From the NCBI GenBank assembly GCA_049318805.1, contig JBMOFP010000003.1:5702-69701 (forward strand): a stretch of DNA of 64,000 nt. Reading direction: 5' to 3'. This document shows, piece by piece, positions 52,377 through 56,503 of this stretch. The DNA is from Bradymonadia bacterium. GTDB lineage: Bacteria; Myxococcota_A; Bradymonadia; UBA7976; UBA1532. The notes beneath the pieces were generated by a model. It was not told the origin of the DNA. It saw nothing but the letters and a program-made list of their open reading frames with translations, and searched no databases. Made by a program: the position numbers and the translations under genes. Every line of letters begins with the position of its first letter. Positions within the stretch are counted from its first letter, which is position 1.

Positions 52377-54485
52377 TCAGGGCGCGACCGTCGGCTCCCC
52401 CTGCGTCGAGCTCCGACGCGCCTCGCAGGCCTCGAGCTGCTTGCGGAGGATGACCGCGTCGAGGGCCGTCTGCCGCAGTAGGCGCTGGCGAGCGGACTCG
52501 TCGGGACCGTCCAAGCGCAGGTCGGGTGGGCCCGAGGGCCGCACGAGGTCGCGCACGGGGTCGGACGGCGGCGGGTCCCCGAAGGGCACGGGACGCGCGC
52601 TCAGCTCCAGCACACGTTGCTCGAGCTGAGCGCGGAGCGCCCGCTCGCGCACCAGGGACTCGTCGAGGCGCTCCACGTCGTCTCTGCACGTGTCCAGGGG
52701 GTTCTCGACGCTGGATGGGGTCGGTGCCGGCTCGGGGTCCTGAACCAGAGCGACCTCCTGCGCGTAGCGCTGGGTGACCGCGGCCAGCGCTTCTCGCAGC
52801 GCGTCGGAGCTGCGATTGCGCGCGGCCTCGGCGGCCTTGAGGCGATGGGTGAGCTCTTGCACCTCGGCCCGACGCTCCGCGGCCTCGCGCTCCGTCGACT
52901 CGAGCCGGAGTCGGTCCTGGGCGTCGAGTCGTCGGAGCGCTCTCAGTCGCCGAATCTCGGAAACCGCGGCCTCGTGTCGGGCGTTCACCTCGTCCAGAGT
53001 CTCCAACAGCGCCGAGGCCTCGCCCGCGCCCGATCCGCTCTCGAGCCGTGTCTCCACGGTTCGACGCGCATCGTCGAGGGCCTGCGACCCGAGCGTGCTG
53101 AGGCCCGCCTGCACGCTCTCCGAGTGCTGCCGATACGCCAGCAGCGCGGCCGTGCCCGCCGTGGCGACGAACGTGAGCAGCATCGCGGCCCGCCACCGCA
53201 GCGTGCGGGTCGCGGCGACGTTGGCCGCCTGCAGATAGGCGAGCTCCGCCTCCGTGAGGTCCGGCTGCCCCGCGGCGCGCGCCGTGGCTCGAGCGAGCGC
53301 TCCCCCGGTCGGTAGGCGGGCGCGAGGCCGCCCGGCGTCCTCCCACGCCCGCGCCGCTTCATAGAGCGGTCTGCGGTCGAGCAAGCCGTCCACCCAGGTG
53401 AGGTCCAGAGTTCGAGCGAAGACCCGGTTCCTGACGGCGAGCGTGCCGCCGCGCTCGCAGGCCGCCCCGGACATGAACAACGCGCTCTGCACGGGATCGC
53501 CCGCCACCGAGACGACCGCGTGACCGGCGCGCACCCGCCGGTACAGGTGCAGAACGCGCATCGCGGGCGCCTCGACCCAGTCCCGCTCGAGGAACGCCGC
53601 CGCGCTCGCCAGCAAAGGGTGGGCGTGGGGTCCGGTGCGCGGGAACAAGCGCTCGCTCTCCGCCGCGACGCGCGTGACCCAGTCCGCGGCCGATGGGGGC
53701 GAGGTCGGCGTCGGTGCACTCCCGAGGGCGCGCAGCAGCGCCATCGTCATGTACGGGTGGCCGGCGGTTTCGTCCCACACGGCGTCGAGCAGCGCGCCGG
53801 CCTCGGCGGCGCTCCACGCTTCCAGGGCGGGCCGCGCCTGCTCGAGCGAAGCGCGAGAGAAGTCGCCGAGGGGCACGGGCGTGGCGATGTCGAAGGGGTT
53901 GTTCGTCGAGTCGGGGACCAGGTCTTCGGTCCGCGCGAAGCCGACGAGGCAGAACGTGAAGCGCGCCCAGTCGGGGTTGGAGGCCCGCTCGTTGTGCATC
54001 GCCCGCAGGCTGCCCAGGAACTCACCGCGAAAGCGCAGTCGCGTGAGCACGTTGATCTCGTCCAGGAAGAGCACGAGCGGCCGCGCATCGGACGGGAGCA
54101 AGAGGTCCGAGACGAAGCGCCGAAACCGGCCCACACCCCGCTCGGGACAAGCGTTCCAGAAGGCCGTGACCCGGGCGACCCCGAGGTCCGCGGCGCGTGC
54201 GACCTCGACCGCCAGGGAGAGATACCAGCGATCCTGGGCGGCCTCGCCCTCGGCGACGTCGGCGCCGATGGCGGTGAGGTCGATGGCCACGCACCGCCGG
54301 CCCGCGTCGGCCTCGAGACGGCGTTGGACCTCGAGGCGCAGGCTCGTCTTCCCGACCTGACGCGGGGCGAGGACGTGGCAGTGCTCCCCGGCCTTCAGGG
54401 CCTCGTAGAGCCGGTCGTCGGCGTCTCTCCGCACGTAGAGCGCGTTCGGCGGCAGCGCGCCCCCCACGTGGAGCGCGCGGCTCAA
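52377..54485 (-). CDS. AAA_35-like P-loop NTPase with C-terminal TM helix and long coiled-coil (system gene 2)
   Basis: TTG at 54485 overlaps the gene-1 stop (TTGA). The N-terminus [45 protein letters not shown] resembles what I recall of the AAA-like (PF14516-type) family N-terminus. Walker B [13 protein letters not shown] helix [21 protein letters not shown]. The following roughly 250 aa are heptad-rich and charged. Confidence 0.75.
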   Translation of the reverse strand: [702 protein letters not shown]

Positions 54486-56503
54486 GCCGACCCCCCGGCG
54501 TAGCGCTTCAGGTAGGTCGACCAGACCGGACACAGCGGAAGCGCGGAGCCGGCGCCGTCCTGGGCGCAGAGCCCTTCGGCGAAGATCGCCTCCTGCACCG
54601 CGCGCGGACGCAGCTTCGGCTCGAGCTGCGGCAACCCGGCCAAGGACGGGGCCACGTCGCTCCGTGTGACCAGCCGCGTGAACTGTAGGTCGATGAGGCT
54701 TCGCAGGGTCTGGGCGCGCTCCAGCGGTGCATTCAGCCGCGCGTCCAGCTCGGCATCGTCCGGGCCACCGCTGAGGAGCGCGCTCACCAGGTGCGGTCCA
54801 CCCCCGACCGCGGCCCGAATGCGCGCGCAGGCGTCGACGGCGGTGACCGCGGGGGCCCACCGCCGTAGGACCGCGTCGAGCTCGCTCGGGCTCAGGTCCG
54901 CCAGGAAGTGGCGCTGCGCCAGGTCGAAGAAGCTCGACTCCGTGCGTGTGCCCGGTCGGTTCAGGCGCGTCACCCAGGCCGTCGGTGTCGCCGAGGTGGT
55001 CACGACGACCTGGAGGCGTCGCCAGGTCGCGCGACCCTCACGGGCCCAATGGGCCGCCCGACGAAGCAGCCCGAAGAGCTCGAGGTCGAGCGCGGCGTCG
55101 CTCGTCGGTAGGTCGCCGGGGTTCTCCACCACGAGGGTGATCCAAGGCTCGGGTGTGGCGTCGATGAGGGCTTCGAAGGCCACCATCAAGCGTTGCATCG
55201 GGGCGTCCACGTCGAGCAGGGACCAGGCCTCGTGGGCGCTGCGTCCGTCCCGCCCGAGGCCCCGCGCCAGCTCGTTCACGAGGGAGTGCGCGAAGCCCTC
55301 GAGGGTGTCGCAGGCGAGGGCGCCGGGCTCGAGTGTGAGTCGGCGACCGGCGCGGTCGCCCGCGACCTCGAGCAGCCGCTGGGCCCAGGAGGTCTTGCCG
55401 AAGCGACGCGGGGAGAGCACGAGCAGCGGCTGTTCGGGGTCCAGGAGGCGCGCGGCGACCTGCGGGTCGAGGTCCCACGGCACCGGCGCGGGCCTCAGCG
55501 TGGGGGGCGGTGTCGGTGGGCTCGAGAGGCCGGCATCGGCGCTGGCGCGGGGCGCCCGTGGCCCCTGCGCGACCGGGGGCGGGCGAGGCGGGGGCACGGG
55601 CCCGCGTGGACTGCCCGCGGGGGGGACCGCCGCGAGGTGCGCGAGCAGGGGCTCGAGCTGCTCGTGGCGCCCCTGGGCGTACCAGACCGGGAAAATCCGA
55701 TACGTCTGCAGCGCGCGGGAGCGTTCGAGCCACGCGGCGTCCCCAGGGTACTCCAGCAGCGCGTAGTGAAAGCACCCCGCGTCGCCCAGGTCGGCGGCGA
55801 CGCGGCTCAAGAGCAGCAGAGTGCGATCGACCCCGAGGCTGCACCCCACGAAGAGGATCGGCCGGGCGCTGAACAGGCGCCGCAGCACCTGCGGCAGCGG
55901 CTTGTCCAGGTCGACCTGGTCGGCGACCTGACTGCCGTAGCAGGCGTCGTACTCCGAGAGGGTCAGCACCCGGTTCGCCCGGTCCTCGATGTCGCCGTGC
56001 AGCTTGAGCAGCGCGCGGCGGCCACCGTCGAGCGCGGCGCGAAACGGCCACGCCGACCGCCCAGGCACCACGGTCTCGAAGCGTCGGCCGGCCGACTCGA
56101 AGACACTCTCGAGCAAGCGGTCGAAGTTCGTCGTCACCACGGGACCACGGGCGAGCGCGGGCAGGTGTTTCACGGCGCCGTCGAGCGGCCGGTCTTGCAG
56201 GGCGTTCGGCCCGTAGACCTTCTCGAGTCGTTTGTGGAAGCTCGAGGCGCCCGCGGAGCGTTCGACACACTCCGCAGCCTCTTCGTACTCGCCTGCGGTC
56301 AGATGTAACTCGACCTGAGACGCGACGCCGTAGCGCGCCCCCAGCGCCCTCAACAGCGCGCTCCAGCTCGGGAGCCCGAAGGGCACACCGAGACCCGCAC
56401 CCACCCAGGGCACGACACCCTGGCCGCTGCCGACCAGCTCCAGCAGCGCGGGCAGGTGCAGGTCGTTCTCGCCGAGGGCGAGGAAAGCGTCGTCGGGTGC
56501 CAT
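54482..56503 (-). CDS. SIR2_2-like NADase domain fused via a Pro-rich linker to a divergent AAA_35-like P-loop NTPase (system gene 1)
   Basis: ATG at 56503 (MAPDDAFLALGEN...). SIR2_2 motifs VVPWVGAGLGVPFGLPSWSALL, VVTTNFDRLLE, LLKLHGDIED. Linker PPAGSPRGPVPPPRPPPVAQGP... Walker A LVLSPRRFGKTSW. Walker B-like LVVENPGDL, lacking the usual DE. Confidence 0.75.
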   Translation of the reverse strand: MAPDDAFLALGENDLHLPALLELVGSGQGVVPWVGAGLGVPFGLPSWSALLRALGARYGVASQVELHLTAGEYEEAAECVERSAGASSFHKRLEKVYGPNALQDRPLDGAVKHLPALARGPVVTTNFDRLLESVFESAGRRFETVVPGRSAWPFRAALDGGRRALLKLHGDIEDRANRVLTLSEYDACYGSQVADQVDLDKPLPQVLRRLFSARPILFVGCSLGVDRTLLLLSRVAADLGDAGCFHYALLEYPGDAAWLERSRALQTYRIFPVWYAQGRHEQLEPLLAHLAAVPPAGSPRGPVPPPRPPPVAQGPRAPRASADAGLSSPPTPPPTLRPAPVPWDLDPQVAARLLDPEQPLLVLSPRRFGKTSWAQRLLEVAGDRAGRRLTLEPGALACDTLEGFAHSLVNELARGLGRDGRSAHEAWSLLDVDAPMQRLMVAFEALIDATPEPWITLVVENPGDLPTSDAALDLELFGLLRRAAHWAREGRATWRRLQVVVTTSATPTAWVTRLNRPGTRTESSFFDLAQRHFLADLSPSELDAVLRRWAPAVTAVDACARIRAAVGGGPHLVSALLSGGPDDAELDARLNAPLERAQTLRSLIDLQFTRLVTRSDVAPSLAGLPQLEPKLRPRAVQEAIFAEGLCAQDGAGSALPLCPVWSTYLKRYAGGSA

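Follow-up and report, generated by a model that had tools for sequence, protein, structure and literature searches.

A translationally coupled gene pair of Myxococcota with a SIR2 domain and two paralogous AAA_35 modules: a candidate split STAND-type switch

Introduction

The two-gene nSTAND2 system, described computationally by Kaur, Iyer, Burroughs and Aravind (2021; PMC8195603, Fig. 6C), seems to offer the closest logic in the literature to the gene pair studied here, which lies in a stretch of 64,000 nucleotides from a Bradymonadia bacterium (assembly GCA_049318805.1, contig JBMOFP010000003.1; this whole stretch is called the window below). Gene 1 of the pair encodes a SIR2_2 domain that is joined by a Pro-rich linker to an AAA_35-like nucleoside triphosphatase (NTPase), and the downstream gene 2 encodes an AAA_35 NTPase followed by a predicted transmembrane (TM) helix and a helical tail. 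With a probability of roughly 0.55, we favor the reading that both genes together encode a split switch resembling nucleotide-binding leucine-rich repeat receptors (NLR) or signal transduction ATPases with numerous domains (STAND), i.e., a STAND/AAA+ switch built from two paralogous AAA_35 modules and equipped with a SIR2 NAD+ hydrolase (NADase) as effector.

As in this pair, the nSTAND2 genes form an operon, both encode STAND proteins, variable effectors are borne by the module with eroded motifs, and a hetero-multimer is predicted. In contrast, the effectors of nSTAND2 are GT4 or HEPN domains located C-terminally on the downstream gene, whereas the effector of the pair is N-terminal on the upstream gene 1, and the P-loop of the eroded nSTAND2 module is entirely lost, whereas gene 1 retains GKTS. 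The nSTAND2 system is described as mobile, and a TM or coiled-coil partner is not mentioned for it (PMC8195603). Membership in nSTAND2 is rejected, as hhalign comparisons with 12 nSTAND2 sequences, drawn from the opening third of the alignment in that paper, give a probability of 0.1% against the family profiles A1 (gene 2) and A2 and against a TIR-AAA_35 set, and of 5.4% (P 0.007) against the Metallophos-bearing partners described below.

Avs5 (EfAvs5, PDB 9jap) is similar to the pair in carrying a SIR2 NADase at the N-terminal end of a STAND-type NTPase; it is found among the structural matches of both gene products, and activation by oligomerization is likely a shared logic. However, Avs5 is one chain with its own C-terminal sensor, whereas in the pair the sensor position lies on a second paralogue, predicted to be membrane-anchored, and the NTPase is of the AAA_35 family. 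Membership in Avs5 is rejected, as gene 1 reaches 11.3 bits with NF041814 (cut-off 1000) and E 0.01 with the Avs5 model of PADLOC, and as it stops after the NTPase and winged-helix domain (WHD). KomC of Kongming, ThsA of Thoeris, and DSR2 have a SIR2 fold and catalytic residues like gene 1, but the partners known from these systems, i.e., the SLOG domain or ThsB, KomA and KomB, and the C-terminal sensor of DSR2, are missing beside gene 1, and membership in Kongming is rejected because its defining partner genes are absent. Thoeris is rejected as well, as the PADLOC match to ThsA is confined to profile positions 25-225 of 478, that is to the SIR2 part, and no TIR gene neighbors the pair. The same applies to DSR1/DSR2 (21.5 bits with NF041818, cut-off 1400; the long C-terminal sensor is lacking), to SIR2-HerA (no HerA match for gene 2 in PADLOC or Pfam, and a fold resembling that of the origin recognition complex (ORC) and of STAND proteins), and to Lamassu, whose LmuB matches (E 0.017-0.16) fall in the coiled-coil residues 467-584 of gene 2 alone and whose ATPase is of the ABC type, whereas that of gene 2 is AAA+. 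The membrane two-gene system EACC1 (PMC7159879) is unrelated to the pair. According to PMC13001434, Tmn of the YobI/KAP family is, as predicted for gene 2, a membrane-associated P-loop NTPase, and acts in phage defense; it differs in belonging to an unrelated NTPase family, in consisting of one protein without SIR2, and in its effector mechanism, which is described as Mg2+ export and plasmolysis.

An earlier reading of this DNA, made from the sequence only, had supposed that the pair is not a known defense system, and indeed searches with PADLOC and NCBIfam return only SIR2-domain matches and non-specific coiled-coil matches, and no system model in either collection spans the pair. A literature search found no paper naming PF14516, the Pfam entry of AAA_35, and the query "AAA_35" gave unrelated strings only. 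In the main text of a 2026 STAND survey (PMC13581612), the terms AAA_35, PF14516, SIR2, coiled, and Metallophos are absent, and "transmembrane" occurs once, as an abbreviation in a figure legend.

Results

Coupling, co-conservation and rarity of the gene pair

Both genes are present and co-oriented on every contig recovered, and their stop and start codons overlap as NTGA (GTGA, ATGA, or TTGA) in all 11 loci, i.e., in ten junctions that were read and in the window. The translational coupling by a TTGA overlap and the co-conservation of the pair, both raised in the sequence-only reading, are thereby borne out, and all organism labels of the pair-bearing loci are metagenome-assembled genomes (MAGs) of Myxococcota. 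The open reading frames (ORFs) of gene 1 and gene 2 show codon-position G+C of the coding type (GC3 = 0.89 in both, GC2 0.53-0.54). Gene 1 starts with ATG, and in the alignment both its ends agree with those of the orthologues, its N-terminus MAPDDAFLALGEN matching the orthologue N-terminus MPLPDEILGLGDN.

That the two genes are unrelated neighbors and adjacent by accident is very improbable and effectively refuted by co-conservation, as the 4-nt overlap is kept in 11 of 11 loci including unrelated contexts and other effectors, as the NTPase modules are homologous to each other, and as the same two-subunit layout exists in cyanobacteria. Word-indexed searches of 5.8 billion protein clusters recover about nine full-length relatives per protein, plus one near-identical copy each, with identities of 44-47% for gene 1 and of 52-57% over the N-terminal 60% of gene 2. 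An exhaustive HMMER search of 1.84 billion representatives identifies only 18 relatives of the gene 1 NTPase module at E<=1e-3, and a profile search aimed at widening the gene 2 family adds no members apart from WD40 fusions.

Two paralogous but unequal NTPases

Gene 2 matches AAA_35 over residues 15-254 (E 2.3e-21, 76.4 bits, cut-off 27), in agreement with its earlier assignment. Residues 353-618 of gene 1 stay below the same cut-off with 20.3 bits; the gene 1 orthologues P0002-P0009 bear precomputed PF14516 matches. When the NTPase families of gene 1 and gene 2 are compared profile to profile, hhalign gives a probability of 97.5% (E 7e-12, 241 columns), and ITLVVEN of gene 1 sits against LVLFLDE of gene 2. 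Of the earlier proposal that the pair contains two AAA_35-like NTPases, the paralogy therefore stands, but not the equivalence, since the canonical Walker B of gene 2 ends in DE and the non-canonical one of gene 1 in EN. E460 and N461 of gene 1 are invariant in 12 of 12 orthologues, and the strand formed by residues 455-460 in its AlphaFold2 (AF2) model terminates at E460. Across a wider alignment of the family, downstream subunits always possess GK[TS] and hhhhDE, whereas upstream, effector-bearing subunits show EN in Walker B (SIR2 type), or EA, EG, KR, DR, or DV (other types). Three upstream subunits, L017, L016, and P0039 (GKAW, GKRW, GKTW), lack the Ser/Thr of Walker A.

AAA+ proteins that have lost the catalytic Glu of Walker B usually still bind nucleotide while hydrolysis is blocked. 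As EN takes the place of DE in gene 1, its NTPase probably binds NTP without hydrolyzing it, which would leave the effector subunit hydrolysis-impaired.

The model of gene 2 has a predicted local distance difference test (pLDDT) score of mostly 70-93 over the N-terminal ~430 residues (residues 20-430). With this model, Foldseek finds Orc1/Cdc6 (2qby), the archaeal ATPase SSO1545 (2fna, with the best template modeling score, TMt 0.55), and Avs3 (8dgc), and further the plant NLRs NRC3, ZAR1, and RPP1 as well as EfAvs5, with E in the range of 1e-6 to 1e-3. When solved structures are searched by sequence with the gene 2 family, nothing but weak coiled-coil matches (E >0.03) is obtained.

The SIR2 domain and its exchange for other effectors

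The SIR2_2 (PF13289) match of gene 1 extends over residues 122-270 (E 4.5e-22, 79.1 bits, cut-off 24.5). All motifs from which an intact domain had been read are present, namely VGAGLGVPFGLPSW at residues 34-47, with the GAG motif of the SIR2 domain at residues 35-37, TTNFD at residues 124-128, and KLHG at residues 167-170 (KLHGD in the context of H169); SPRRFGKTS of the NTPase follows at residues 364-372, and the Pro-rich linker that had been proposed between both domains is disordered in the model. N126 and H169 are invariant in the aligned sequences (n=18), and H169 aligns with H146 of KomC, the position that is mutated (H146N, H146A) in PDB entries 9xvc and 8zsi. The model of gene 1 reaches a mean pLDDT of 75.5, with 80-96 across most of the SIR2 domain, and its top Foldseek matches are KomC (8zsf and 9xvc, TMt 0.76-0.80; E 1.3e-10 for the SIR2 domain), ThsA, and DSR2, with EfAvs5 further down. 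With its intact catalytic Asn and His, the SIR2 domain of gene 1 is probably a defense-type NADase.

At the sequence level, the nearest relatives of this domain are the N-terminal domains of the NB-ARC/TPR STAND proteins P0011-P0014. Among P0010-P0016, this subtype of SIR2 (40-43% identity) occurs in fusions with NB-ARC and TPR (~1050 aa, Avs-like), with an AEP-like primase domain (P0010), or with vWA (P0016), which indicates that the SIR2 module is shuffled among several switch or sensor scaffolds.

The catalytic Asn/His pair is common to all sirtuin-fold enzymes, and as these motifs alone cannot distinguish between activities, the domain might instead be a regulatory protein deacylase, or an ADP-ribosyltransferase with a specific target, and the pair a signaling switch that does not kill. 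We consider this quite improbable, as the domain scores with SIR2_2 and not with canonical sirtuins, as its best structural and sequence matches are all defense NADases (KomC, ThsA, DSR2, and Avs5), and as homologous cassettes can have a Metallophos or TIR effector in its place. In three loci, L010, L015, and L017, with gene 2 identities of 32-37%, a Metallophos-AAA_35 protein (calcineurin-like phosphoesterase) replaces SIR2-AAA_35 as the upstream partner. These Metallophos-type loci occupy unrelated genomic contexts, and among the PADLOC models those for effectors of candidate systems match their Metallophos domain. In L017, which is a 1.2-Mb MAG contig, the gene-2-like ORF of the cassette is frameshifted (10393-10419), and this could reflect a pseudogene or a long-read homopolymer error. 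The gene 1 NTPase is also remotely related to AAA_35 proteins whose N-terminal domain is TIR, EAD7, EAD11, BTAD, or Metallophos. The exchange of effectors, SIR2 or Metallophos in the pair and TIR in cyanobacteria, seems to be as expected for a conflict system.

Cyanobacterial pairs and the sensor position of gene 2

A plasmid of Tolypothrix PCC 7601 (NZ_CP064889) encodes a TIR-AAA_35 protein (WP_263420184, 597 aa) and, after a gap of 10 bp, an AAA_35-WD40 protein (WP_045874702, 1177 aa). Gene 2 is 31% identical to the latter over 435 aa (E 8e-54), the similarity ending where the WD40 repeats start, and for the gene 1 NTPase and the former protein, identity is 22% over 352 aa (E 8e-5). P0030 is another gene-2-like module fused to WD40 repeats. 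In both the cyanobacterial and the myxobacterial pairs, the upstream subunit consists of an N-terminal effector and AAA_35, and the downstream subunit of AAA_35, a helical/WHD region, and a C-terminal domain in the sensor position. The window pair is thus a myxobacterial form of a general layout in which an effector-AAA_35 gene precedes an AAA_35-sensor gene, and since WD40 repeats stand there in AAA_35-WD40 proteins, the TM helix and tail of gene 2 occupy the usual sensor position of STAND proteins.

The sequence-only reading had known of no described system of this kind, a view to be modified, as the cyanobacterial two-gene layout is a precedent and nSTAND2 a parallel (PMC8195603). There are nevertheless clear differences. 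The effector is TIR in the cyanobacterial pairs and SIR2 (or Metallophos) in the myxobacterial ones; TIR-AAA_35 proteins keep DE in Walker B, whereas the effector subunit gene 1 has the degenerate EN; the cyanobacterial downstream subunit ends in WD40, whereas gene 2 has a TM helix and a helical tail with Pro and Cys but no WD40 or TPR repeats; and the cyanobacterial genes are separated by their gap on a plasmid, whereas those of the window overlap by 4 nt on a myxobacterial chromosome. Distinctive of the pair are the SIR2 domain on the subunit with non-canonical Walker B and, where the sensor would be, a fast-evolving element that is predicted to span the membrane and to lie outside the cytoplasm.

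Tandem AAA_35 genes are found on the plasmids L025 (Allocoleopsis PCC 7113) and L026 (Tolypothrix PCC 7601), either as TIR-AAA_35 followed by AAA_35-WD40 or as two consecutive AAA_35-WD40 genes of >1000 aa. These cyanobacterial plasmid genes are annotated merely as "AAA-like domain-containing protein" and adjoin a patatin-like phospholipase and an integrase gene in L026. AAA_35, including the cyanobacterial pairs, probably corresponds to the Npun2340/2341 family within the MNS clade of STAND NTPases, reportedly described in Leipe 2004 and mentioned in PMC8195603. Both the resemblance in structure to SSO1545 and the large numbers in Nostocales point to this.

Membrane segment and tail of gene 2

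Residues 433-451 form the sole strongly hydrophobic segment of gene 2 and are preceded by the Arg-rich RTLRWR. An equivalent segment (mean hydropathy 1.7-2.7) is located within residues 427-472 in eight of eight gene-2-like proteins, each time after an R-rich stretch, and is followed by 176-278 residues with 2-6 Cys. Most homologues keep a Cys motif (five Cys; 5-6 Cys) at the C-terminal end of the tail, which has been largely lost from the window copy. Behind the segment, the model shows long helices at residues 455-483, 486-516, 522-581, 601-629, and 663-693, so that the single TM helix and the helical tail of about 250 aa claimed earlier both reappear. Going by the positive-inside rule and its Cys content, gene 2 would have an N-in, C-out topology, with the tail in the periplasm.

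The tail is the fastest-evolving part of the gene pair, being 17-22% identical to that of orthologues as compared to 54-58% for the N-terminal part of gene 2; between other lineages, the respective values for gene-2-like proteins are 38% for the tail and 67% for the N-terminal part. Through gene 1 and up to about codon 395 of gene 2, the loci L007 (11186-12886) and L008 share 99.98% identity; the TM and tail modules that follow are unalignable, the L007 tail being that of P0025, and identity is 93% thereafter. Either recombination has swapped the tail module or one of the metagenome assemblies is chimeric.

Alternatively, the hydrophobic segment might not be a true span, or be a mere anchor, and a cytoplasmic tail could serve as oligomerization scaffold or sensor, in which case the pair would be a two-chain, Avs-like intracellular sensor. 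The hydropathy of just 1.73 in the window copy is consistent with this, as are its two tail Cys without the Cys-rich end of the homologues and the low AF2 confidence; also, coiled coils are common cytoplasmic scaffolds in defense ATPases, and weak matches to LmuB and JetC occur in the coiled-coil region only. We regard a cytoplasmic tail as unlikely all the same, as the segments of the homologues are far more hydrophobic (2.1-2.7), all stand behind Arg-rich stretches, and mostly have 4-6 Cys behind them, and as the segment is kept in SIR2 and Metallophos types alike. The features of the pair and of its immediate neighbors are compiled in Table 1.

Table 1. Positions in the window of the features of gene 1, gene 2, and adjoining genes (res, residues of the encoded protein; CDS, coding sequence; NBD, nucleotide-binding domain; HD, helical domain)
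Feature	Position	Strand	Basis or remarks
Gene 1 CDS, effector subunit: SIR2_2, Pro-rich linker, AAA_35-like NTPase	54482..56503	-	673 aa; ORF/translation, Pfam, 12-sequence orthologue alignment, AF2
SIR2_2 domain of NADase type, gene 1, ~res 28-295	55619..56422	-	PF13289, Foldseek, invariant N126/H169
Catalytic residues of gene 1 SIR2 (putative)	N126 = 56126-56128; H169 = 55997-55999	-	Alignment
Pro-rich, length-variable linker, gene 1, res 298-342	55478..55612	-	pLDDT <50 (modeled disordered); gappy Pro-rich alignment columns
NTPase module, gene 1, res 345-673	54485..55471	-	hhalign to gene 2 family; 12-orthologue alignment; AF2
Walker A GKTS, gene 1, res 369-372, invariant	SPRRFGKTS = 55388-55414	-	Alignment
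Non-canonical Walker B ITLVVENPG, gene 1, res 455-463	55115-55141	-	Alignment, model
TTGA overlap: gene 1 stop TGA, gene 2 start TTG	54482..54485	-	Junction sequence GCTTGAGC
Gene 2 CDS, predicted sensor/switch subunit: AAA_35 NTPase, helical/winged-helix region, TM helix, helical tail	52377..54485	-	702 aa, TTG start; Pfam, alignment, AF2
Predicted cytoplasmic module, gene 2, res 5-425, NBD-HD-WHD fold of ORC/STAND type	53211..54473	-	PF14516, Foldseek
Walker A GKTS, gene 2, res 45-48	APRQVGKTS within 54342-54368	-	Invariant in alignment
Canonical Walker B LVLFLDE, gene 2, res 137-143	54057-54077	-	D142 and E143 invariant in alignment
Predicted single TM helix, gene 2, res 433-451	53133..53189	-	Kyte-Doolittle 19-residue mean 1.73
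Post-TM tail, gene 2, res 453-702, predicted periplasmic, 2 Cys	52380..53129	-	Long helices broken by Pro-rich stretches
GSDH-PKD-EGF secreted protein, convergent with gene 2	48292-52350	+	Adds PKD, Big_9, EGF, and P-domain modules
Spacer of 151 bp separating gene 1 from the divergent 406-aa gene, presumed to contain the promoter	56504..56654	.	Sequence
406-aa neighbor, signal peptide LLVLAVGATCVVGLCPAAEAA, C-terminal ...ARAKF (Phe)	56655..57875	+	Translation
MopE-like protein, 1087 aa	57929-61192	+	At least 5 "CDGxDNDCDG" Cys repeats

Genomic context

Divergently from gene 1, a 406-aa protein is encoded that has no match in Pfam or PADLOC, the PADLOC scan of neighbors having covered this one protein, and that is likely an outer-membrane beta-barrel. 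Its gene adjoins gene 1 divergently in the eight distinct SIR2-type loci that reach past gene 1 (L001, L002/L005, L003, L004/L006, L007, L008, L009, and the window); in the Metallophos-type locus L010, no match to the 406-aa protein is found. This envelope protein could be a functional partner of the tail of gene 2, if the latter is periplasmic. We tentatively entertain the possibility that gene 2 is a transmembrane NLR-like receptor whose hypervariable tail, perhaps together with this adjacent outer-membrane protein (OMP), senses an extracytoplasmic event, such as adsorption or injection by a phage or an attack on the envelope by a competitor or predator, and signals outside-in across the inner membrane to the AAA_35/STAND switch, which would then recruit the hydrolysis-dead, SIR2-bearing paralogue. 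Between both divergent genes no sigma-70 consensus is found, which has little meaning for Myxococcota, and a promoter and terminator scan at the pair is uninformative.

The remaining neighbors are the secreted GSDH-PKD-EGF protein, the MopE-like protein, a PMT_2 glycosyltransferase, and an aldehyde dehydrogenase (Aldedh). Beyond them the window holds ordinary chromosomal genes, among them those for a Ser/Thr kinase, an M50 peptidase, and citrate synthase. The locus is not a defense island; the sequence-only reading had suggested looking for one, and the neighbors turn out to be secreted or envelope proteins and housekeeping genes. Across syntenic loci, identity amounts to 69-70% for the flanking enzymes and to 44-54% for the surface proteins, as compared to 52-57% for the N-terminal part of gene 2 and 45-46% for gene 1.

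A 12.6-kb block (~48616-61200), comprising the genes for GSDH-PKD-EGF, gene 2, gene 1, the OMP-like protein, and the MopE-like protein, is absent from the corresponding regions of L018 (343-3209) and L020 (3361-6068), which are closer relatives of the window (Aldedh 84-85%, PMT 80-83%) and come from a metagenome scan seeded on the Aldedh N-terminus that gave three loci, so that presence and absence are thinly sampled. In L018 and L020, the PMT_2 gene and a 133-aa gene are divergent neighbors, 69 bp apart in L018, and the 226/237-aa gene adjoining Aldedh is missing as well; L001 has the pair but lacks GSDH. The missing block implies that the pair is dispensable at this site and not a housekeeping function there. 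A loss in the L018/L020 lineage is the most parsimonious explanation, and the interval resembles a variable hotspot between core genes that is devoid of mobile-element genes. A constant, non-variable context had been named in advance as an argument against a conflict system. Such constancy is seen in part, as the site is conserved among the orthologues, but the missing block in L018 and L020 and the different contexts of the Metallophos variants weaken this argument.

The same hardware might also constitute a lineage-specific module of social Myxococcota for envelope signaling, programmed cell death, or kin interaction, rather than for phage defense, with outer-membrane damage, contact-delivered toxins, or developmental lysis as triggers. 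This idea, which we find possible but doubtful, would agree with the stable syntenic site amid genes for envelope and secreted proteins (likely OMP, MopE-like, GSDH-PKD-EGF, PMT_2), with a tail that is predicted to face the periplasm and has Cys and Pro-rich stretches, with the restriction to Myxococcota without any phage or mobile-element link, and with the enrichment of STAND-effector systems in multicellular prokaryotes (Kaur et al., PMC7159879, PMC8195603). In contrast, effector swapping together with a hypervariable sensor is the usual signature of co-evolution with an invader, although conflict between strains would fit this signature too.

Several details of the window lie beside these questions. 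It encodes two GSDH (glucose/sorbosone dehydrogenase-like) beta-propeller proteins, the one next to gene 2 (48292-52350, + strand) and another at 7289-9697 (- strand); the annotated GTG start of the former is probably too far upstream, as it overlaps a conserved 133/151-aa gene of the opposite strand (48160-48615). The MopE-like gene contains a 49-nt repeat family (58670-59792), the C-terminal region of its product is long, rich in Gly, and of low complexity (60.2-61.05 kb), and a 40-nt palindrome (61203-61242) lies between it and the PMT_2 gene. An HTTM-DCC1 fusion of 679 aa (43355-45394, - strand) is shared by L018, more distant relatives carrying a 149-160-aa DCC1 protein alone. Compared to L005, the window has extra genes for a glutathione S-transferase-glutaredoxin (GST-glutaredoxin) protein and a GDSL lipase between the HTTM-DCC1 gene and the M50 peptidase/kinase pair.

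Discussion

The pair is best filed among the STAND/NLR-like effector systems of multicellular bacteria. If it acts as a split switch, as we prefer, the membrane-anchored, NTPase-competent gene 2 product would perceive a signal through its tail or a membrane-proximal region, and this signal would drive the nucleotide-dependent hetero-oligomerization of its NTPase module with the hydrolysis-impaired one of gene 1. The hetero-oligomer might then cluster SIR2 domains into an active NADase assembly, as in the filaments of ThsA, KomC, and Avs5; titles of PDB entries call KomC, BcThsA, and EfAvs5 helical assemblies. Depletion of NAD+ would finally arrest or kill the cell. Phage attack at the envelope could be the trigger, or some other envelope insult that matters to social myxobacteria. 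The genomic context lends no support to an anti-phage role, plausible as it is.

A number of points weigh against a split immune switch. All SIR2-type orthologues reside in one conserved chromosomal site, which is unusual for mobile defense systems, and neither defense genes nor integrases or prophage genes are found near the pair. The G+C content of the window (~72%) shows no compositional break at the locus, direct repeats do not flank the pair, and the cassette is not found in viral contigs or plasmids, so that an origin from a mobile element is rejected. The family is tiny, as 5.8 billion proteins contain about ten of its clusters (90% identity), and it is restricted to MAGs of Myxococcota. 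Also, the topology of gene 2 is deduced solely from hydropathy, the positive-inside rule, and Cys content, the AF2 models were built on shallow alignments of 11-18 sequences and have low pLDDT in the TM segment and tail, and the literature search with PF14516 returned no experiment on any AAA_35 protein.

To our knowledge, each of the characterized bacterial immune sensors of the STAND/NLR type consists of one cytoplasmic chain, and it is within the cell that this chain binds phage proteins. The cassette described here divides the work of sensing and effecting between two paralogous NTPases, of which one seems to be catalytically intact. If the predicted topology and the coupling of both subunits are true, the pair would be a tractable case of a NADase suicide effector that is activated across a membrane, as well as a naturally heteromeric pair of STAND proteins in which the contribution of nucleotide binding could be separated from that of hydrolysis. 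Should gene 2 indeed be an outside-in receptor, the immune response might fire before parts of the invader enter the cytoplasm, and the sensor module would be exchangeable between strains. The immediate impact is limited by the rarity of the pair and by its confinement to uncultured Myxococcota. If confirmed, the pair would nevertheless provide a first functional handle on AAA_35, an uncharacterized family with abundant members in Myxococcota and in multicellular cyanobacteria.

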